A stretch of DNA of 20,152 nt, taken from Candidatus Thorarchaeota archaeon (lineage in GTDB: Archaea; Asgardarchaeota; Thorarchaeia; Thorarchaeales; Thorarchaeaceae). The notes beneath the pieces are model-generated. The model did no database searches. It saw only the letters and a program-made list of their open reading frames with translations, and was not told the DNA's origin. The position numbers and the translations under genes are program-made. Below, piece after piece: positions 2,978-18,266 of this stretch. The stretch lies in the NCBI GenBank assembly GCA_046758445.1, contig JBHIAE010000052.1, positions 1 to 20,152 on the forward strand, given 5' to 3'. How positions within the stretch are numbered: the stretch's first letter is position 1; every line of letters begins with the position of its first letter.

Positions 2978-4141
2978 CTACGATGCTTCCTCCTCATGAT
3001 CTGACTCAGGTTTCTGTCGAGTCTGCCTGATTCTTGTCAACAAGCGAATAACCCTTGATTTCAGCGAATAGAGAACAGGCACATCAATGTCCTCAGGGGC
3101 TTCTCGAGTCGGTTCTTGAACTGGCGACATAGGCTGCTTGATGGTCAAGAGAGTTGATGCATCTACGTCAGATGGTTTGACGAAGGCAGCAGATAGGACT
3201 CCAATGACCAAGAGAATGGGAAGTGGGGCGTAGAGCATTTGCTCACCCTGTGCCATCCCCATCGCCAACAAGGGGGAAAGTAACACGACGAACAGTAATC
3301 CAATCGTCCCAAACAGTATCACTCTTGTTCTGGATACTGCACCTCGCCAGTAACGAAGAATCTCGTATATGAACATGAACCGGGGAAGTACATAACCGAA
3401 ACTCAGCAGCAGAACGTTAATGTCCATAATTAAGATCGATAGATCCCAAATTGGCAACATCTGGTGGTCTTGGTATATCGGGTAAATGAGCATTGACAGG
3501 GTTTGATATCGGGAATATTGTCCTACCTGTGGCACAACTACGAGAAAGAAGGGAATCACGAAGACTGCCAGACCTAACGTATTGCCTATCACAGCATACT
3601 TCCGGGGTACTCGTGCAGAAGAAGAGGTGCGATTAGTGCTATTCTTTTCCAAGATTCTGACTAGTCCAGCCAGCTCGGCCTCTCTAGCAAACATAGGAAG
3701 GAAGACAAACACCACGAGCGCCACTGATGTGAAGCGAAGTGTTTCGAGGGTAAACCCTAATCCGAAATCACCATACACCGAATACATAGAAAAGAAGGCG
3801 GTGCCAGAGACCGACGCCAACACCAGATCTGTGATGGGCAATGTCCTCGATTGCTTTGAAAGTCTTCGTGTGAAATAGATACCGGGTATACAGATGAATA
3901 GAGCCGTGGCTATATCGGCGGGACTACGGAAGCTAGCTATAGTTTCTCCTGTGTAGTGCATGATCCGAATGAAGAAGAGCATGCAGCTATAGGAGCCACC
4001 TATCCCCCGGCCCAAAGGAATGCCTTCATCCACCTCCAGGGTGACCTCCACAGGGAGAAGCAGGACTATCAATACCCTGAGGGAGGTCTTTATCCAGAAA
4101 CCGATGTCAATATTCCTTCCTGCCAATCTCAACCTGAACAT
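2978..4141 (-). CDS. Multi-pass membrane protein of unknown function (paralog of 4157-5401)
   Basis: 387-aa ORF with many hydrophobic helices. Shares LPxFAREA, LGLAVF, RYxRGxVSR and VPxLYxLKS with the neighbour. Confidence 0.8.
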   Translation of the reverse strand: MFRLRLAGRNIDIGFWIKTSLRVLIVLLLPVEVTLEVDEGIPLGRGIGGSYSCMLFFIRIMHYTGETIASFRSPADIATALFICIPGIYFTRRLSKQSRTLPITDLVLASVSGTAFFSMYSVYGDFGLGFTLETLRFTSVALVVFVFLPMFAREAELAGLVRILEKNSTNRTSSSARVPRKYAVIGNTLGLAVFVIPFFLVVVPQVGQYSRYQTLSMLIYPIYQDHQMLPIWDLSILIMDINVLLLSFGYVLPRFMFIYEILRYWRGAVSRTRVILFGTIGLLFVVLLSPLLAMGMAQGEQMLYAPLPILLVIGVLSAAFVKPSDVDASTLLTIKQPMSPVQEPTREAPEDIDVPVLYSLKSRVIRLLTRIRQTRQKPESDHEEEAS

Positions 4142-10001: not shown

Positions 10002-10032
10002 GAGGGATTAGAAGGTTAACCATTACTTTTAG
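10002..10032. repeat. Putative attL
   Basis: GAGGGATTAGAAGGTTAAC (10002-10020) vs TAGGGTTTGAAGGGTTAAC (18248-18266). The inner arm AACCATTACTTTTAG is 12/15 identical to the reverse complement of 18240-18254. Confidence 0.6.
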
Positions 10033-10073
10033 CAGGGGGGTAAGTGTATGTGGGTTTACGCCCCCTATATTAC

Positions 10074-11489
10074 ATGTCCGTTTCTAGAAAACCCGCTTGG
10101 TATGAAAAAGATGAGTTTCTAGACCGTTGGGTTGGTTCTCGAACAGAATCCACCAAGAAACTTTACAGAAAGGCTTGGCGTAGGTGGATGAGCTTCCTAA
10201 CTACAAAAGAAGAATGGAATCCAACCCCTGAAGAAATCATAATTGAATACGAAGAGGATCTAAAGGTCCCAATCCGCCAAGGCGGTGGGGAAACAGGTAG
10301 AAGAATTGAACGCTTCTACAAGTGGCTTATTGAGGAATACATCAATCCTAGTGTTGATGGCGATGATGTTCATTTGTCACCCAGCAGTGCCAATACATAT
10401 TGTGGTGCGATAATGGGGTTCTATAGAATGAACACAGGGCAACGCGTACCATTTCAAAGACCTGTGCGTGAGGTCTTACCTAGAGGTAGAGTCGCTGATA
10501 ACGCCAAAATTGAGTTGGAACATCATCACATCCGAGGATTACTCGACGCAAGCAACTCCTTACGCGAGAAGGCATTCATCCTCTGCATGTATGAATTTGG
10601 CTCTGACTTGGACACCCTTCTGAAATTGGATGTCAAGCATATCGGTAACTATGACCTTGACTGGGCGACTATCACAACCACCAGAGGAAAGACCAGAGTT
10701 CAATACATTTCACATCTAGGTCCTAATGCTATGAGGGTACTGAGAACATACCTCTTGAAGCGGTTCAAGATTCGAGGGAAGATTGACTCTGTGACTAAGG
10801 CATTCAAGAGAGTTTCAAGTAAGTATAAGGGCAAAATGATGAAGGCTTGGAACCAACCCCTCTTTGTGATGAAATCAAGGGGTGGTTCTTGGAAACGTCT
10901 AACATCTGGAGCAATCAGGAAGGAGTTTAGTAGCATTAGGCGCACAGCTGGATTCGTTGATGAGGATCTACGCATCAAAGGAAGACAAAATTCGGTTGTC
11001 CTGTATTCATTGCGTTCAGCGTTTGAAACTCACTTAGCATTGGCTGGATGTCCAAAAGAGTTATACGACTTCTGGATGGGTCACAAGCTTCCCTATGAGG
11101 GTGCATATTTTAGAGTCAAGCAGACGAGTCTCAAAGAGTATCAACGATATTGGAAGCAAGCCCTAGACATTTACTCAGGCTTCGGAACTGATGTTGATGA
11201 GATGGTTCAAGAACGCCTTCGTGATGAATTGGCGAAGTACATCGGGTTTGCTCGTGTTGAAGATATTGAACGTGAAGCACGTATCATTGCTGCGGAAAGA
11301 CGAATGCACGAGAGTGGTGGTGGTAAGGCACGAATTGGTGAGTATGAACCCGAAATCATCATTGAACAGATTGAGAGTGGTAATCTAATAGATCCGTTGG
11401 ATGAACTTAACGAGGAAGAACTAACACAAGTGAAGTTTGAGGCGTGGCAAAGGATAGTCATGAGAAGTCTAACAGACAATCAGGAATGA
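10074..11489 (+). CDS. Tyrosine recombinase/integrase, non-canonical active site
   Basis: N-terminal SAM-like region (T..LY...W..W..FL; SANTY...I..FY). Catalytic-domain pattern LREKAFIL.MY..GSD..TLL.L, RGKT, YSLR..F.T.L, FWMGH, YEGAY. ATG 10074 preferred over GTG 10044. Confidence 0.88.
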   Translation: MSVSRKPAWYEKDEFLDRWVGSRTESTKKLYRKAWRRWMSFLTTKEEWNPTPEEIIIEYEEDLKVPIRQGGGETGRRIERFYKWLIEEYINPSVDGDDVHLSPSSANTYCGAIMGFYRMNTGQRVPFQRPVREVLPRGRVADNAKIELEHHHIRGLLDASNSLREKAFILCMYEFGSDLDTLLKLDVKHIGNYDLDWATITTTRGKTRVQYISHLGPNAMRVLRTYLLKRFKIRGKIDSVTKAFKRVSSKYKGKMMKAWNQPLFVMKSRGGSWKRLTSGAIRKEFSSIRRTAGFVDEDLRIKGRQNSVVLYSLRSAFETHLALAGCPKELYDFWMGHKLPYEGAYFRVKQTSLKEYQRYWKQALDIYSGFGTDVDEMVQERLRDELAKYIGFARVEDIEREARIIAAERRMHESGGGKARIGEYEPEIIIEQIESGNLIDPLDELNEEELTQVKFEAWQRIVMRSLTDNQE

Positions 11490-11608: not shown

Positions 11609-12007
11609 ATGGTTGTAGGCAGAATGAAAAAAGAGCTTCCTGTCAAGGATGGGGTTAGGTACACATTTGTTGGTTTCTATGATTCATATTTCTGGGATGA
11701 GATTAACCTTAGAGATAGAGTAGTGAAACAGAAAAAACTGCTGTTTACGAGTATCAAGCTTCAAAACGGAACTTTGGTAAAGGATGAGTATTGGTTTGAC
11801 TCTTCTAAACAATTTGAAGATCTAGGAGAATTGAAGAAGGGGGACATCATTCAATTTAATGCACGAGTTAAGATATTTTTGACTGGTTATGAAAGTCAAT
11901 ATTCATGCGATCCTGGAACTGATGAGTGGCGGATTGAATATGAAGATAAACGTGAATTGGATTTCAAGTTGCTGAACCCCTCCAAAGTCAAGAGAATATC
12001 TAACTGA
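11609..12007 (+). CDS. Conserved hypothetical, probable OB-fold protein of mobile elements
   Basis: Pattern R..F.G.. / LL...I / DxxWF / L..GD.I.F.ARVK....GY / DFKL..P.KV recalls a widespread uncharacterised phage/MGE family (recognised from memory, not searched). Confidence 0.65.
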   Translation: MVVGRMKKELPVKDGVRYTFVGFYDSYFWDEINLRDRVVKQKKLLFTSIKLQNGTLVKDEYWFDSSKQFEDLGELKKGDIIQFNARVKIFLTGYESQYSCDPGTDEWRIEYEDKRELDFKLLNPSKVKRISN

Positions 12008-12056
12008 TTCTCCCTTAGATGGCAGACCTTAAATTCATTCACGAGAAGTGCTTCCT

Positions 12057-12320
12057 ATGAAGAAGAACTGGGCTTTTCCTAGAGGTAAAAACTTCTTTGC
12101 CTTTGGGTGGGGCAAGCGTGGTCCTTACGCAGTTGTAACTAGGCGAATAGGACGTAGGACCTACGCAAAAGCATCCATTGGCGCTCTTGGACCCAGAGTA
12201 GGTGGCAAATACTCTGGTAGAAGAGCATCTGCTGAAGGAAGGATAAATCTCTCAACCGGGAAACCATCATTCTCTTTCAAGAGGAAACGTAGTTCCTCAC
12301 GTCGAAGAAGGCGTAGATAA
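12057..12320 (+). CDS. Small highly basic Gly/Arg-rich protein with C-terminal poly-Arg
   Basis: 87 aa with 27 Lys/Arg and one acidic residue. CTTAAAT TATA-like box about 25 nt upstream of ATG 12057. Confidence 0.65.
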   Translation: MKKNWAFPRGKNFFAFGWGKRGPYAVVTRRIGRRTYAKASIGALGPRVGGKYSGRRASAEGRINLSTGKPSFSFKRKRSSSRRRRRR

Positions 12321-12412: not shown

Positions 12413-12688
12413 TCAGAGACCAAGTGCTACAATCTCAGAGCTTAGGGTTGTTCCTGCACCAACCGAGAGAAGCGTGAAGCCTACGACATTGCCACTGACA
12501 TCAACGTGATTGATATCACCAACTGAGGTCTTTGGGTCTGTAGAAGTCACTTTGACATTCAGTACTGCTTGGATGTTCTGTAGATCCGCAATAGTCACCT
12601 GAATGTAGACCGTTCCCGAAGCCACAACTGAACTATCAGACTGCTTTGAGATGGTTGAACCATCTTTGAGAGTTCCAACGACTGTCAC
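12413..12688 (-). CDS. Small all-beta protein, possible virion decoration/spike protein
   Basis: 91 aa rich in V/T/S/G with alternating beta-strand pattern. GTG start overlaps the upstream stop (GTGA) and is preceded by GGGTGA. Confidence 0.7.
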   Translation of the reverse strand: MTVVGTLKDGSTISKQSDSSVVASGTVYIQVTIADLQNIQAVLNVKVTSTDPKTSVGDINHVDVSGNVVGFTLLSVGAGTTLSSEIVALGL

Positions 12689-13238
12689 CTAATCACCCTC
12701 TGGATGGTCCTTCGTGGGATGGCAGCAATGTTTCTAGCAAACTGGACGGCTTGGTCAAGCACCTGAAATCCTGTTTGCCTGTAGATGTCCACAGGAGGGG
12801 GATAACTCCCAGACCTTCTCCTTGTCCTCACAGGGCTAGGTGCTGAGAATGTATGCCCAGTTGGGTCACTGAAGGCTAACCTTGTGGTTGCTGAAGGATC
12901 TACCCCGCCACTAGCTCGTCTATGAGAACCTCGGTCAGATGCCCTTGTCTTCTCAAAGTAGTGTTGAGGACGAAGGAATGACCGTGTACCTCCGCTAAGA
13001 ACTCCAATCACACTTGGGATGTCTCCGATTGTTGTCCCCTTGGGATAGCTCCTAGGGGAGATTCCATGAACACTTCCACTTGATGGAACGTTCGGTCTTC
13101 TCGATTGTGATGTTCTTCCATGTCGTGCCTCAGTCAGACCTTCGAAAACCTGAATGCTAGCATGTAACGGCCATGCTACAGACTCAAGCCTTCTAGTTCT
13201 GCTACTACGTCTTGGAGGACGTCCATAGAGATTCCCAT
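12685..13238 (-). pseudogene. Arg/Ser/Pro-rich basic protein (~184 aa) with frameshift right after the start codon
   Basis: AGGTGA SD then ATG at 13238. The frame of the 108-aa track ORF is stop-free from 13251 to its stop at 12685. Adding one G to ATGGG gives MGNLYGRPPRRSSRTRRLES... Confidence 0.65.
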
Positions 13239-13243
13239 CTCTA

Positions 13244-13786
13244 TCACCTAGTCACACTACTGTAGCCCCTGTGCTTTCTCAATCGTTTCTTCTCTGCCTC
13301 ACGTCTCTGTCTGTTTGCTTTGATTCGTTCTGCTGCCTGTTTCATCTCTTGTTCCTTAATCTCCTCCTCAGTAGGTGGAGCAGGGGGTGGCGGAGTGAAT
13401 CTCTCTCGGAATGAAGTGAGTATTCCGAAGCCTTTGAATGGTCCACCCCCTGCGGTTGGTATCGAATGAGTCGCTCTCCTTTCCAGAGCTTGGTCAAAGG
13501 CTGAGCCTTGAGAAGATGAGTAGGTTTCTGAAGCATGAGTGGTCTGTGGTTCTGGATTGGGCTGAGGCTGTCCAGACTGAGGTTTGACTAGTGGAGTTGC
13601 CTCCGTGAGCTTCTCTAGTGGTTTCTGTTCAGACATCTGTTCCTTGATTCGTCGCCTGACTGGAACAGGATCTACTCCAGCACGAATCCGAATGTTCCCT
13701 GTGACGGCATCGACAATGGCAAACAGTGCTGAGACTCTTCGGTTCAATTCATTGGGATTGAACTGTTTCTGCTTCCTAGCCATCAT
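13244..13786 (-). CDS. Hypothetical Pro/Gln-rich protein with basic C-terminal coiled coil
   Basis: 180-aa ORF with ATGA overlap to the upstream gene, GGAGGT SD, PPPPAPP segment and charged helix. Confidence 0.75.
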   Translation of the reverse strand: MMARKQKQFNPNELNRRVSALFAIVDAVTGNIRIRAGVDPVPVRRRIKEQMSEQKPLEKLTEATPLVKPQSGQPQPNPEPQTTHASETYSSSQGSAFDQALERRATHSIPTAGGGPFKGFGILTSFRERFTPPPPAPPTEEEIKEQEMKQAAERIKANRQRREAEKKRLRKHRGYSSVTR

Positions 13787-14961
13787 TCAACCTCCTGTTC
13801 TGGTGGCTCACCATAGGTCATGAATTCCCCAGCACCTAATCGCTCTAGCTCCTCCGACATCAACCGCGTACTCTCCCGAATATCATCAATTGAAGACGGG
13901 GTCGGAGGTGCAGATCCTGCATCATAAACTGCTTGTGCACCCTGAAGTAGCCAATCCTTCACTGCTTTTGTAGACGACCTTACATCCCTGAAGGTATCAA
14001 TCATCTCACCCTCAACCTGCTCAGACCATGTTCTGTCCCTTTGACGAGTTTCAAGGTCACGTATCTTATCCTCAAGTGGTCTGACTGTCTCGTCCATCCA
14101 AATCCTGCGTTCCAACTTCTCTTCCAATCTGTCAATTCTTCGTTGAAGCTTCTCATTTTCAAGCTCCAACTCACGCTCTCGTTCTGAATCATCATACGAA
14201 CCTTCGGGTTCAATGATAGCCTTCATCTCTTTGAAGGTCTGAATCATCTCACGCATCTGGCTGGCTGGATTGTCCTGTTGATAGCGTCCACCAAACTCAC
14301 CACGTCCGGGTCTAGACGGGGTCCGTCGAGTGGGACCAGTCCATGTTTGCTTACTTCTGTAGATCCGGTCCTCAAGGTCATAGGGCACTTCCAGCCCTCT
14401 TTTGGCTACCCAATCTTGAAGGAACATTCGCTGACTAGTGGGATTCCAACTAACCACCATTTCCTCAGCCAACTCAATGAAGTCCCATAGGTTGTCTAGG
14501 TCAAGCTCTCTGGTCTTGAACATGTGAACAAATCGCGAGGCATCTCGTTTGGGCATATCCCAATAAATCAACAATCTCTCCAACTTCTCATAGACATCAG
14601 GTGCCTCAGGTGTCGGTTCTCGTCTGGGGCGGTGTCTTGGTCTCTCCACTGGTTCATCCATTTCCTCCCATTCATTCTCATCCTCTTCATCGGTGAGGTC
14701 AATCTCATCATCTAGGTGGGTTGGTGCCTCCATTGATTCCACCATTTCTTGTACATCAGTTTCAACAATAGGTTCAGGCTCATCGAATGGGTGTGGAATT
14801 ACCGTGTCATCTTCTATGGTGCTAAATGGGTGTTCCACCATTGCTCCATCTGACTTACCCTTACAGAATCTTTGGTGCGTATTTAGTGCCCGTTTGTTCT
14901 TCCATGGCTTTCCATGTCTGTCCGCTGTTGCACCACAATGTATGCATGCAAGTTCAGTCAT
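13783..14961 (-). CDS. Hypothetical protein: N-terminal Zn finger, acidic linker, helical domain, coiled coil
   Basis: CIHC-x18-HQRFC (C2HC finger), D/E-rich residues ~50-105, heptad region ERERELELENEKLQRRIDRLEEKL, AGGTGGTG SD upstream. Confidence 0.85.
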   Translation of the reverse strand: MTELACIHCGATADRHGKPWKNKRALNTHQRFCKGKSDGAMVEHPFSTIEDDTVIPHPFDEPEPIVETDVQEMVESMEAPTHLDDEIDLTDEEDENEWEEMDEPVERPRHRPRREPTPEAPDVYEKLERLLIYWDMPKRDASRFVHMFKTRELDLDNLWDFIELAEEMVVSWNPTSQRMFLQDWVAKRGLEVPYDLEDRIYRSKQTWTGPTRRTPSRPGRGEFGGRYQQDNPASQMREMIQTFKEMKAIIEPEGSYDDSERERELELENEKLQRRIDRLEEKLERRIWMDETVRPLEDKIRDLETRQRDRTWSEQVEGEMIDTFRDVRSSTKAVKDWLLQGAQAVYDAGSAPPTPSSIDDIRESTRLMSEELERLGAGEFMTYGEPPEQEVE

Positions 14962-14972
14962 AGTCCATTACA

Positions 14973-15023
14973 CCACCTAGTGTCCACCTAGTGGACATTC
15001 CATTATGCATAATGGTCAATATT
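14973..15023. promoter_or_regulatory. Palindrome/direct-repeat cluster (operator or origin-like)
   Basis: CCACCTAGTG twice (14973, 14984), TGTCCAC-CTA-GTGGACA (14981-14997), and perfect 16-bp palindrome CCATTATGCATAATGG (15000-15015). Confidence 0.55.
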
Positions 15024-15053
15024 AGATCCCCACCCCCGAGGGCATGGGTACTT

Positions 15054-15320
15054 CTACCATTCAAATCCATTAATCCTCCTTTGGGATTCTTCCATTGTTC
15101 TGAATAAATACACCATATAGGATACACATGGCTTCTTAGTTGTCCGTATGGTTAATGATTCCTCTTCTTTGGCGAGTTCACCAATAGCTTTGGCAAGAAT
15201 CAGCCTTTCACGTTCTGCGTCTAGCCACTCCTTCAACACTATGAGATAGGATTGTGATTTGACCAATCTTCTACCAATAGCATCCAACAAAGGTGGTAGT
15301 GGTGGATACATAGCACTCAT
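15054..15320 (-). CDS. Hypothetical protein (88 aa)
   Basis: AGGTGA SD immediately upstream of ATG 15320, directly following the stop of the upstream gene. Confidence 0.65.
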   Translation of the reverse strand: MSAMYPPLPPLLDAIGRRLVKSQSYLIVLKEWLDAERERLILAKAIGELAKEEESLTIRTTKKPCVSYMVYLFRTMEESQRRINGFEW

Positions 15321-15330
15321 CTTGTTCACC

Positions 15331-15642
15331 TCATGGTGCGGGAAGGATTGCCTGTGGTTCAATCTCAAACACTCTCAATACATTCTCATCTGTGTCAAAC
15401 TTGACCTCTAGAACCCGTGGAAGGACTGCACGAAGCTCAATAGTACTCTTGCCTGAGATCCTAGTAACGCTGACATCCCAGAGCTCTACTGCTGTAAGCC
15501 CAGTTCATGTCTTGACCTCATCACCAAACCTTGTGCTTAAGGTCGCTCTAACTGTTGAGCCTGAGTTCACAACTTCAATCACTCCACCAAGATACCGTTC
15601 CTGCTCGTAATCATCATTTTGTCCGAAGAACCTTCTCAGCAC
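15331..15642 (-). pseudogene. Beta-rich hypothetical protein (103 codons) interrupted by an in-frame TGA
   Basis: AAGGAGG SD, then GTG 15642 overlapping the wHTH stop. MLRRFFGQ...GDEVKT*TGLTAVELW...ILPAP*. TGA at 15507-15505 (codon 46). The gene fills the gap between its neighbours. Confidence 0.7.
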
Positions 15643-15947
15643 AGATTTGCCTCCTTGACCAGAACCCCTTTTGGCTTCAGCTTGAACACTCGCCCTCGCT
15701 TTGGGTCATCAAACCTGTCAATCATTTGAAAGCTAAACAGCTTCTCAACCCCCTTCTTCCTGACCGTTACTGGGCTGAGTCCTGTTGCCTCTGCAATCTC
15801 ATTAATTGTCATTCCTCTCTGAGGCTTCTGAGCCAGTGCTAGAAGTGTACGACTTGCAGATCCTGAACTCAAGATTCGTTTGATAATTGGCTCTTTCCTG
15901 ATGACAATAGGTTCGGCCATAGTAGAACTAACTAGTTCCTCCCACAT
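15636..15947 (-). CDS. Winged helix-turn-helix DNA-binding protein
   Basis: LLAL...GMTINEIAEATGLSPVTVRK....L....I.R...RGRVFKL..KG is a typical wHTH pattern. The start may be ATG 15920. Confidence 0.85.
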   Translation of the reverse strand: MWEELVSSTMAEPIVIRKEPIIKRILSSGSASRTLLALAQKPQRGMTINEIAEATGLSPVTVRKKGVEKLFSFQMIDRFDDPKRGRVFKLKPKGVLVKEANLC

Positions 15948-16167
15948 GTATCCTAAAGTCGGTCTAGCAAAAAAAGGAATGCACCAGCCCTGCGGAGTGT
16001 AACAGAGTCAGTGCAAAGAGCTATAACTGACGTCCAGTCGTCACACTTGGGTTGAGTAGTGTAAGGTGGTTGAGATGTATCAATCATTCGTTAGGAAGAA
16101 GGAAGCTCTGAGGGTGGTAATGGTCTAGATTTAGAAATAGACCCCTCAGAGCTAGGAGCCCAGTACA

Positions 16168-16342
16168 ATGAGCCTCCAAATTAACTACGAACCAAAGCCA
16201 TATTTGTCTAAGCTTCGTAGTGAAAGTGGTAATTGAGGATGAGCGACCCGAGGGTGTCCGTGTTCTCATGCTAGAGAAGTGGGTCATCAAGGGTGATGCG
16301 CCAAGGAAGGTTCGCATCAGTATTGAGCCTGTTGAGGACTAG
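16168..16342 (+). pseudogene. Small (~58 aa) protein split by a frameshift near 16220
   Basis: AGGAG SD and ATG 16168 give MSLQINYEPKPYLSKLRS. The +1 frame continues VKVVIEDERPEGVRVLMLEKWVIKGDAPRKVRISIEPVED* and has no ATG upstream of this segment. Confidence 0.5.
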
Positions 16343-16348
16343 ATCTAC

Positions 16349-16384
16349 GGTGGGGTGGATAGACCCACCCACCACTCTTCTTTC
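16349..16384 (+). terminator. GC-rich hairpin plus pyrimidine tract between convergent genes
   Basis: GGTGGGGTGG-ATAGAC-CCACCCACC (one bulge) followed by ACTCTTCTTTC. Confidence 0.55.
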
Positions 16385-16426
16385 ACTGAATTCCGAATTT
16401 ATTAATGAAGAATAAGCACTCTAAGA

Positions 16427-17938
16427 TTAAGCTCGGTCTGGAGTAGGATTTGGGAACCATGCTCGAAACATAGCACCCTGCTCTGGTTCTCCATATACTC
16501 TGTCATGCAAACTGAGTCTTCCCCCATATTTGGACAGTATCTGTTTTGCTTGGTGAATACCAACTCCACCATATCTGCGGGTTGGGTCGAGTAAGCTAAT
16601 TTTCCTATCATTTGGGATACCTGGACCGTTGTCTGCAATTGTAACCTCATATCCCCCAGCCACTTTCACCAACTCCACCCAGATTTGTTTGTTCATTCTA
16701 TTATTATGAATGACTGCATTTTCTAAGAGGTTCGTGAGCAGAATCTCCAAATACTGGTCAGCTATGACAATTTCTCGGTGAACATCGCATTTCATAAAAA
16801 CCTGAACATCAGGGAATTCATTTCTTAGGACTTCCAACGATTCCTTCAGAGCAACTTCTAAGGACCTCTCGAAGAACGGTGCAGAATACAAGCCACGAGT
16901 AGCCTGAATCTTCCTGATTACTTCTTTAGAACTGTGTACAGACTCAACTATAAGACCAAAGACAGGGTCAATTTCAGGACCTAAATCAAAGTGTCCAAGT
17001 ATCTCTGTCCCCAAGACAATTGCTTGTAGATGGTTTCGTATATCGTGACTTATGAGGTCCAAATAAAAAATCGCTTGCTCGCCAGCAACCGTTGCTGCTC
17101 TTTCTGCGTTCTTGCGTTCAGTGATGTCCTCTATGGCAAGAAGAATCATCTGTGTCTTGTTCTTTTCCCTGTAGATCCTTCTTGCGTTCAGCAGCATGAA
17201 CTTTGCACCGATGTTCTCGAAGACATGCTCCATCTCGAAGTCACGCATCTCAGTGTTCAATGGCAGGATCTCCTCGAGAAGCGCTCTGAGCCGAGGGATG
17301 TCCCACTGTCTTTCCCCAAGGTCGTAGAGTGATTTTCCCTCGGTCTCCTCCTTAGTCATATTGAAGCTCTGATAGAACGAGCGATTGGCTGAGATCACCC
17401 TGATGTCTGCATCCATGACAAGAAGGGGCTCTCGGATTGTTTCCACGATGGCTTCGGCATACTCTCTTGCGGCCCGCTCCTCTCTTTCTGCGTTCTTGCG
17501 TTCAGTGATGTCCTCTATGGCAAGAAGAATCATCTGTGTCTTGTTCTTTTCCCTGTAGATCCTTCTTGCGTTCAGCAGCATGAACTTTGCACCGATGTTC
17601 TCGAAGACATGCTCCATCTCGAAGTCACGCATCTCAGTGTTCAATGGCAGGATCTCCTCGAGAAGCGCTCTGAGCCGAGGGATGTCCCACTGTCTTTCCC
17701 CAAGGTCGTAGAGTGATTTTCCCTCGGTCTCCTCCTTAGTCATATTGAAGCTCTGATAGAACGAGCGATTGGCTGAGATCACCCTGATGTCTGCATCCAT
17801 GACAAGAAGGGGCTCTCGGATTGTTTCCGCGATGGCTTCGGCATATTCTTCCCTCAATATATTCAAACCTTTAGTTATATGTTGAAAGCTCCTCTGTAAA
17901 TTATTCTGATGACTTATTTGTTTTTTTATCCAAACCAT
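16427..17938 (-). CDS. Cytoplasmic PAS-PAS sensor histidine kinase
   Basis: Two PAS domains (ETIREPLLVMD...ANRSFY...IEDITERK), H-box LISHDIRNHLQ, N-box NLLENAVIHN, G1 DNGPGI and G2 GGVGI. Confidence 0.92.
   Translation of the reverse strand: MVWIKKQISHQNNLQRSFQHITKGLNILREEYAEAIAETIREPLLVMDADIRVISANRSFYQSFNMTKEETEGKSLYDLGERQWDIPRLRALLEEILPLNTEMRDFEMEHVFENIGAKFMLLNARRIYREKNKTQMILLAIEDITERKNAEREERAAREYAEAIVETIREPLLVMDADIRVISANRSFYQSFNMTKEETEGKSLYDLGERQWDIPRLRALLEEILPLNTEMRDFEMEHVFENIGAKFMLLNARRIYREKNKTQMILLAIEDITERKNAERAATVAGEQAIFYLDLISHDIRNHLQAIVLGTEILGHFDLGPEIDPVFGLIVESVHSSKEVIRKIQATRGLYSAPFFERSLEVALKESLEVLRNEFPDVQVFMKCDVHREIVIADQYLEILLTNLLENAVIHNNRMNKQIWVELVKVAGGYEVTIADNGPGIPNDRKISLLDPTRRYGGVGIHQAKQILSKYGGRLSLHDRVYGEPEQGAMFRAWFPNPTPDRA
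17098..17845. repeat. Tandem duplication of PAS-coding DNA (2 x 364 bp, period 384 bp)
   Basis: 17098-17461 vs 17482-17845; by eye the only mismatch is 17445 A vs 17829 G (Val vs Ala). Confidence 0.95.
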
Positions 17939-18239: not shown

Positions 18240-18266
18240 CCAAAAGTTAGGGTTTGAAGGGTTAAC
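18240..18266. repeat. Putative attR
   Basis: CCAAAAGTTAGGGTT arm, TGAAGGGTT, then AAC. Lies where the AT-rich tract gives way to host-like composition. Confidence 0.6.

Follow-up and report, generated by a model that had tools for sequence, protein, structure and literature searches.

What kind of genetic unit is formed by the seven small genes that lie on the minus strand between positions 12413 and 15947 of contig C52 of an Asgard archaeon, and what could their products do? The window analysed here is this whole contig (20,152 bp), which belongs to a metagenome-assembled genome (MAG) of 3.25 Mb and 93% completeness and whose sequence is identical in the assemblies of two other sequencing runs. 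The host is an Asgard archaeon: it encodes a true, full-length actin (438 bits), and one genome of its GTDB family, which carries a cousin of the element described below (L044), is labelled Candidatus Thorarchaeota. A sequence-only reading had taken the seven genes for a virion-assembly module, either of a satellite or of a new type of virus. This observation holds with corrections and its interpretation is partly supported. All seven open reading frames (ORFs) are genuine and lie where they had been placed, but the block is part of an 8.25-kb insertion and three of its genes are disrupted. The insertion is a member of an undescribed family of Asgard mobile elements, and the chances are about even that the operon is the core of a small temperate archaeal virus.

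That the block is mobile-element DNA, as the sequence-only reading had supposed, and that the element is integrated, is hardly in doubt. In G007, the closest relative (oxidoreductase 90% identical), and in G006, the genes for an aldehyde:ferredoxin oxidoreductase (AFOR) and for the kinase HK426 are convergent neighbours some 50-90 nt apart, whereas in the window they are separated by 8.3 kb. Alignment of both junctions with G007 delimits the 8.25-kb insertion: homology stops at the left attachment (att) core, attL (AGGGATTAGAAGGTTAAC, 10003-10020), which aligns with the uninterrupted site of G007 (AGGGATTAGAAGGGTTAAC), and the empty-site homology restarts at the right core, attR (AGGGTTTGAAGGGTTAAC, 18249-18266). 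The single 19-nt core of G007 is represented in the window by two imperfect 18-nt copies arranged as direct repeats. Since AFOR and HK426 are adjacent in both relatives and the att copies flank everything in between, the insertion also takes in two small plus-strand genes (orf132 and basic90) and a PAS-PAS histidine kinase gene. The tyrosine integrase gene (10044-11489, plus strand, 481 aa) stands at one end and matches Pfam Phage_integrase (1.3e-7; 32 bits against a cut-off of 27.1), PHROG_1 (3.9e-9) and NCBIfam XerA (4.5e-7); it was not found in 39 of 40 related genomes. An integrase gene at one end, att repeats and an empty site in relatives are therefore all present. Likewise, the family of the last operon gene, beta91, is present in only 5 of 400 genomes of the phylum, and integrases occur on the contigs of the related elements. 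An ordinary host chromosomal operon would fit the GC content of the element, which is close to that of its flanks; it is contradicted by the empty site in two relatives, the att repeats and the adjacent integrase, and the operon genes have no paralogs in the host genome and were not found in the 16 other genomes of the genus searched, so that the probability left to this explanation is negligible.

The integrase departs from the canonical R-K-H-R-H/W-Y set, which is incomplete: box I reads G-S-D in place of G-M-R, so that the catalytic Arg has become Asp, while K216, R324 and H347 are conserved. The integrase of the Thorarchaeota element L044 (10903-12192; 27% identical) is likewise altered, to G-T-D, and for this reason the change is a trait of the lineage, as far as the sequences tell, and not a lesion of the window copy; the integrases of L027, L024 and L022 keep G-M-R.

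Syntenic homologs do exist, and the same gene order was found on five independent contigs (L022, L024, L026, L044 and L055). We are confident that these elements form a conserved family, hitherto undescribed, of small integrase-bearing Asgard elements of roughly 6.6 to 15.5 kb. Its shared genes encode the integrase, a winged helix-turn-helix (wHTH) protein, the all-beta protein beta103, a 121-aa protein, a C2H2 Zn-finger/coiled-coil protein, a Pro-rich protein, a disordered and very basic Arg/Ser-rich protein and the 91-aa beta protein. In L022, which covers about 6.6 kb and in which all ORFs are intact, the order is wHTH, beta103 homolog, 121-aa gene, Zn protein, Pro-rich, Arg/Ser, beta91 and integrase; the ends of this contig do not overlap, and circularity is not supported. 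L026/L027, from the sample series of the window itself, shows the order Zn, Pro-rich, S24-like peptidase, Arg/Ser, beta91, UDG and integrase. L024 is an insertion of about 15.5 kb, as its flanking genes adjoin on host contig C41, and its operon holds the orthologs together with an RHH protein, two beta91 paralogs and a protein of about 270 aa. L055 (about 11 kb) lies in a 41-kb contig beside Roadblock, Sec23-like and SMC genes, and L044 measures at least 12 kb. The larger relatives L024, L044 and L055 carry the ~270-aa protein, and L044 and L055 have, in addition, a D5_N/DUF5906 primase-helicase, an S24-like peptidase and a basic protein of 94-96 aa inside the operon. The window has neither the helicase nor the S24-like peptidase nor the ~270-aa protein of the larger relatives; the helicase and the ~270-aa protein were not seen on the L022 and L026 contigs either, both of which are incomplete. 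The homologs thus do lie within larger elements, as one possible refutation of the sequence-only reading had it, but these proviruses are not known ones. The elements are mosaic: between the window and L026 the beta91 proteins are 85% identical and the Zn proteins 17%. A metagenome scan added one 1.7-kb contig, and a genome scan recovered L044 again.

Related to this, a stand-alone S24/S26-like peptidase (weak Pfam match, 1e-3) is a recurrent member of the operon (L026 2152-2526, L044 218-709, L055 10370-10837) and could be a maturation protease.

The operon ORFs are genuine genes under purifying selection, because homologs in the same order occur on independent contigs and the dN/dS ratios against the sibling L026 are low (beta91 0.08, Arg/Ser protein 0.27, C-terminus of the Pro-rich protein 0.21). 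The first gene (15636-15947, minus strand, as all the genes of the operon) encodes a wHTH regulator of 103 aa with sub-threshold matches to many HTH families (best MarR_2, 1e-3), and is 47% identical to L022 348-623. It is probably leaderless, to judge from its upstream sequence, where a T-run at 15969-15977, about 26 nt ahead of the ATG, may be the TATA box. It is followed by beta103 (15331-15642), a 103-codon all-beta frame 55% identical to its L022 homolog, and by an 88-aa ORF (15054-15320), which corresponds to the 5' part of the relatives' 121-aa gene (33% identical to L022 1695-2060 over 82 aa). What had been described as a palindrome-rich spacer does contain a 16-nt palindrome (15000-15015) and a 7-bp hairpin (14981-14997), with an RNA fold z of -2.5, but both lie inside a 38-aa ORF (14954-15070) that corresponds to the 3' part of the 121-aa gene; the C-termini of L022 1695-2060 and L024 9633-9998 match it weakly and collinearly. 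As in the relatives, the stop of this ORF overlaps the ATG of the next gene.

This next gene, zn392 (13783-14961, 392 aa), encodes a C2H2-type Zn finger, whose consensus the family profile matches at 4.8e-4, and behind it an acidic tract, a conserved helical domain and a coiled coil. Only five relatives turned up when 1.84 billion representatives were searched exhaustively with HMMER, four of them full-length homologs and the fifth (P0003) matching solely through repeated zinc fingers. The protein pro180 (13244-13786, 180 aa), with a Pro/Gln-rich middle and a basic C-terminus, has homologs in L022, L024 and L026: over its N-terminal 56 aa the identity is 46% with L022 and 35% with L024, and over its C-terminal 100 aa it is 68% with L026. 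The Arg/Ser-rich basic protein gene (12685-13251, 188 open codons) is 57% identical to RS153 of L026; its product is of low complexity, with a conserved IGDIPS-type motif and a conserved C-terminal helix. Positional homologs with this motif occur in L022 (212 aa) and L024 (169 aa), and the 210-aa protein of L044 and the 195-aa protein of L055 share with it only the motif and the position. The last gene is beta91 (12413-12688, 91 aa). Apart from the weak HTH matches of the first gene, none of the operon proteins has a significant match in Pfam, PHROG, NCBIfam or PADLOC; among known anti-phage defence models, PADLOC gave only weak wHTH-type matches for the same gene.

Strong Shine-Dalgarno (SD) motifs at the gene junctions had also been reported, and they precede 7 of the 8 internal starts (compared with about 25% of long host ORFs and 6% of random positions) but not the first gene, wHTH; they are also missing before the integrase, orf132 and basic90 genes. 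Their contrast with leaderless host genes, which had been pointed out, is no foreign signature, as a leaderless first gene followed by SD-led internal genes is the ordinary archaeal pattern.

Three genes of the window copy are disrupted, which the sequence-only reading had missed. The beta103 frame is real, but it contains an in-frame TGA (15505-15507) where L022, L044 and L055 all have Trp, and its identity to L022 is even on the two sides of this codon (54% and 58%). The single 121-aa gene of L022 and L024 appears in the window as the 88-aa and 38-aa ORFs in different frames. The Arg/Ser protein, predicted at about 184 aa, has an open frame conserved with L026, but it is frameshifted at its start: the frame is open from 13251 and holds no in-frame ATG, GTG or TTG before 13011, and the sole SD-preceded ATG (13238; SD AGGTGA) is one base out of frame. 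The residues upstream of the GTG at 13011 are nevertheless conserved with L026. Recent inactivation appears to be the simplest reading of these three disruptions, since TGA is a normal stop here and no suppressor or selenocysteine (Sec) tRNA or RNA element was found. The window copy is thus probably defective, although this is held with less assurance than its mobility.

The contrary explanation, that the copy is fully functional and relies on programmed recoding (readthrough, selenocysteine or frameshifting), is very improbable. The frames do remain open past each disruption (for 57, 38 and 184 codons), the disrupted sequence is the same in the separate assemblies of the two runs, and both the out-of-frame ATG at 13238 and the 38-aa ORF retain a good SD. 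On the other hand, the homologs can be read without recoding at all three sites. TGA is the stop codon of 42% of long host ORFs and of 9 of the 12 genes of the element, on which grounds a reassignment of TGA was rejected. A selenoprotein does not fit beta103 either: the TGA aligns with an invariant Trp and not with Cys or Sec, no Rfam element matched, and neither a suppressor tRNA nor tRNA-Sec is among the tRNAs detected, which are only 16.

The only operon product with a recognisable fold is beta91. Its model is a seven-strand beta-sandwich with a predicted local distance difference test (pLDDT) score of 89, built from a 16-sequence alignment, and is predicted to be a stand-alone domain of the fibre-foot / H-type-lectin type: these families are its neighbours, with weaker scores, in Foldseek (PDB and viral models) and in the ESM Atlas, where the neighbour clusters are 75-95% viral. 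Three copies gave an in-silico association score of 0.70 (best control 0.02), which may reflect likeness to solved fibre-foot trimers; of 30 proteins whose solved structures are pairs of one chain, 20 reach the mark used, as does 1 of 23 whose structures are single chains. The runs agree in at least 88% of contacts, with a partner pLDDT of at least 82, and a homotrimer is therefore predicted. A signal peptide is absent. A word-indexed search found six relatives of the protein. In relatives the domain forms tandem duplicates, with five copies in L028 and two in each of L024 and L031, and it also occurs at the C-terminus of longer proteins. A 127-aa paralog of L028 has it behind an N-terminal motif with a weak match (1.3e-3) to a PHROG family of the type 'virion structural protein', and a 215-aa protein of L031 has the same motif and match (1.6e-4). 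A kinship of beta103 to beta91 was considered and rejected (hhalign probability 1%).

The ~270-aa protein of the larger relatives would, by its position alone, be a candidate for the capsid gene. It appears to belong to a large unannotated protein family of archaeal mobile genetic elements (MGEs), with at least 283 clusters that are 55-65% identical and all unannotated; no member occurs in the 400 Asgard genomes, and its nearest Atlas neighbours (0.97) are unnamed viral clusters. In searches of PDB sequences with the profiles of this protein, of the Zn protein and of beta103, the only match was that of the Zn protein to a C2H2 finger. The ~270-aa gene also has a degraded chromosomal copy, L048, which is uninformative. 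In several archaeal contigs, including a Thermoplasmata MAG, the gene opens a conserved array (L028 3714-6896, L047 80-4539, L031 2816-4922), in which it is followed by several proteins of ~90-120 aa and then by one of ~215-270 aa. The comparison of the ~90-120-aa proteins covered L028 and L031, and in both they are beta91 paralogs. The L028 array adjoins intein-carrying glycosyltransferase genes.

Taking all of this together, the best explanation, to which we give an even chance, is that the operon is the particle-forming and adsorption core of a new small temperate archaeal virus lineage, present here as a reduced, probably defective copy. Construction and targeting of a particle are the most plausible task of the operon, because the one product that can be recognised is a predicted fibre-foot-like trimer and because the orthologs stand among candidate structural genes in the relatives; that it has a virion or particle function at all is put at slightly below an even chance. 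According to this proposal, the tyrosine recombinase would have integrated the 8.25-kb element at the 18-19-bp site between the AFOR and histidine-kinase genes. Transcription of the operon would start at a promoter ahead of the leaderless wHTH gene, and the genes that follow would depend for their translation on SD sites and on junctions where stop and start overlap. The element DNA might be bound and condensed, or the particle scaffolded, by the Zn-finger/coiled-coil protein, the Pro-rich protein and the basic Arg/Ser protein, and beta91 might form a trimeric lectin-like knob that binds a cell-surface glycan, as the pyocin or phage fibre foot does. The window copy is a reduced member of the family, probably a recently inactivated provirus.

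Several results weigh against this proposal. The sequence-only reading of a virion-assembly module gains from the virion-type fold of beta91 and from the candidate structural genes in the L024 operon, but no capsid, portal, terminase or packaging ATPase was recognised by Pfam or PHROG in the window or any relative; structure-level comparison for virion hallmarks covered beta91. IMG/VR, where a search had been proposed, contained no member of the family with four queries (the Zn protein, the ~270-aa profile, the beta103 profile and a beta91 paralog), and tblastn of GenBank phage records with beta91 and the ~270-aa protein gave nothing. Structure prediction, which served for beta91, yielded no usable fold for the ~270-aa protein (an AlphaFold2 model from 3 sequences, pLDDT only 36). 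Moreover, beta91 has no match to Pfam H_lectin (PF09458) or Gp53-like_C (PF21882) in a scan up to E = 1, whose single match was unrelated and sub-threshold, and a lectin-like sandwich of its type is also present in the cellular lectins HPA and discoidin. The roles suggested for the Zn-finger, Pro-rich and Arg/Ser proteins have composition alone as their basis. The host genome holds no CRISPR-spacer-like match to the element or its relatives; a 29-nt match in genome G355 was rejected as a spacer, as it is not within a repeat array. Finally, L022 is intact with no helicase seen, on a contig cut at the integrase end, so that compactness may be a functional design and not the outcome of decay.

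Since the family has no known capsid, portal or packaging enzyme, a serious rival, although clearly less probable than the viral proposal, is an integrative element of plasmid-like and non-viral nature, such as the small Asgard element Yucahu-i. The operon would then encode DNA-binding and maintenance proteins together with a lectin-like protein of cellular role, and no particle would be made. The Zn finger, the wHTH and the basic protein all fit DNA binding, the D5-like superfamily 3 (SF3) helicase of the larger relatives is typical of integrative plasmids, and the literature knows small Asgard elements that bear an integrase but have no capsid genes (PMC11529989; PMC13700489). However, the fold of beta91 and its neighbours are overwhelmingly those of virion fibre tips, the lack of a signal peptide does not suit a surface role, arrays of paralogs and fusions to fibre-like N-termini are a viral pattern, and no partition ATPase or conjugation genes were seen. 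A satellite of a helper virus is less probable still. In such a case the compact lineage (window, L022 and L026) would keep the integrase, regulators, DNA-binding proteins and its own receptor-binding knob, and would borrow capsid and replication. The window shares the module with L024, L044 and L055 and yet lacks their helicase and ~270-aa protein, neither of which is seen on the incomplete L022 and L026, and L022 has all ORFs intact at about 6.6 kb. Nevertheless, homologs of the extra genes of the larger relatives, which would betray a helper, are not found in the 93%-complete MAG (viral contigs being often unbinned), nothing resembles known capsid-redirecting proteins, and the three disrupted genes argue against current function of the window copy. 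A wider proposition, speculative and rather unlikely as a whole, is that the window element and its relatives are unrecognised small temperate Asgard viruses whose virion proteins have no sequence kinship to known hallmarks, with a free-standing trimeric lectin-like receptor-binding knob that diversifies by tandem duplication, and with the compact helicase-less lineage as a satellite-like offshoot.

The remaining genes of the insertion are of a different character. The gene orf132 (11609-12007, plus strand; GC 0.37) has no match in Pfam, PHROG, NCBIfam or PADLOC. The adjacent basic90 (12048-12320, plus strand) encodes a small K/R-rich protein with homologs, 52-61% identical, in four other genomes of the host family (L050-L053), where no module genes were seen within the ~1.5 kb flank examined on each side; judging from this distribution, it may move independently or derive from the host. 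The basic 94-96-aa proteins of the L044 and L055 operons resemble it in composition alone. In the place of orf132 and basic90, L026 has a UDG-superfamily gene (3289-3936; Pfam 5.6e-7).

Beyond the operon, a non-coding stretch (15948-16426) is followed by the gene for the PAS-PAS histidine kinase (16427-17938, minus strand, 503 aa; Pfam PAS and HATPase_c), which lies inside the att sites and is absent between AFOR and HK426 in G007 and G006. The protein is 56% identical to a host paralog on contig C50, and the window at 16237-17128, i.e. the kinase core and its 3' flank, shows 69% DNA identity to C50, for which reason the kinase is regarded as cargo. The ~190 nt downstream of the kinase gene (16237-16426), a host-like 3' flank that forms part of the non-coding stretch, are 69% identical to the region downstream of the C50 paralog, which suggests that the kinase was captured along with its own 3' flank. 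Besides, a perfect 300-nt direct repeat (17098-17397 and 17482-17781, with a 384-nt period) lies inside the kinase gene and duplicates the PAS domain.

Few Asgard mobile elements have been described so far, and automated virus finders miss this family, which lacks hallmarks in Pfam or PHROG and is not represented in IMG/VR. It is now defined for structural and experimental work by a clear site of integration, by some six orphan proteins that are conserved and by one virion-type fold.

Among the closest known systems are the small integrated Asgard elements Yucahu-i and iMGE-xvi and the CRISPR-targeted circular MGEs with integrases and no recognisable capsid gene (PMC11529989; PMC13700489). Common to elements of this type and to the window family are a size of 7-11 kb, a tyrosine integrase with a short att motif, HTH proteins and a majority of hypothetical genes, and some members have an SF3 helicase; the window element differs in having no helicase and in carrying the fibre-foot-like protein, a comparison made by description and not by sequence. 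The Asgard satellite NMV2S (preprint) was rejected as the same element, as it carries a helicase-primase and Cas4. The Asgard virus groups, i.e. verdandiviruses (HK97 capsid), skuldviruses (double jelly-roll) and wyrdviruses (spindle-type), resemble the family in infecting Asgard hosts, in the small size of their genomes and in the large number of their Zn-binding and HTH proteins (10.1101/2021.07.29.453957). However, their hallmark proteins were not detected in the window or its relatives with Pfam and PHROGs.

Satellites offer another comparison. The Sulfolobus elements pSSVi and pSSVx, the bacterial P4 and the phage-inducible chromosomal islands (PICIs) carry replication genes and, where known, capsid-redirecting proteins. 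Like the window element they are small, integrase-bearing and without a recognisable capsid gene of their own, whereas here no helper, replication gene or capsid-redirecting protein is known. Cryptic prophages resemble the window element in being integrated and in showing decay, which here, by comparison with intact homologs, consists of a nonsense mutation and two disruptions of the frame, although in this case the parent would itself be a virus of no known type. As for beta91, it differs from the foot of R-type pyocins and phage tail fibres (PDB 6cxb, 6cl6, 4mtm) in being a free-standing protein of 91 aa with no shaft, an identity of only 12% and a putative sugar binding, but it shares with them the H-type lectin fold according to its predicted structure.

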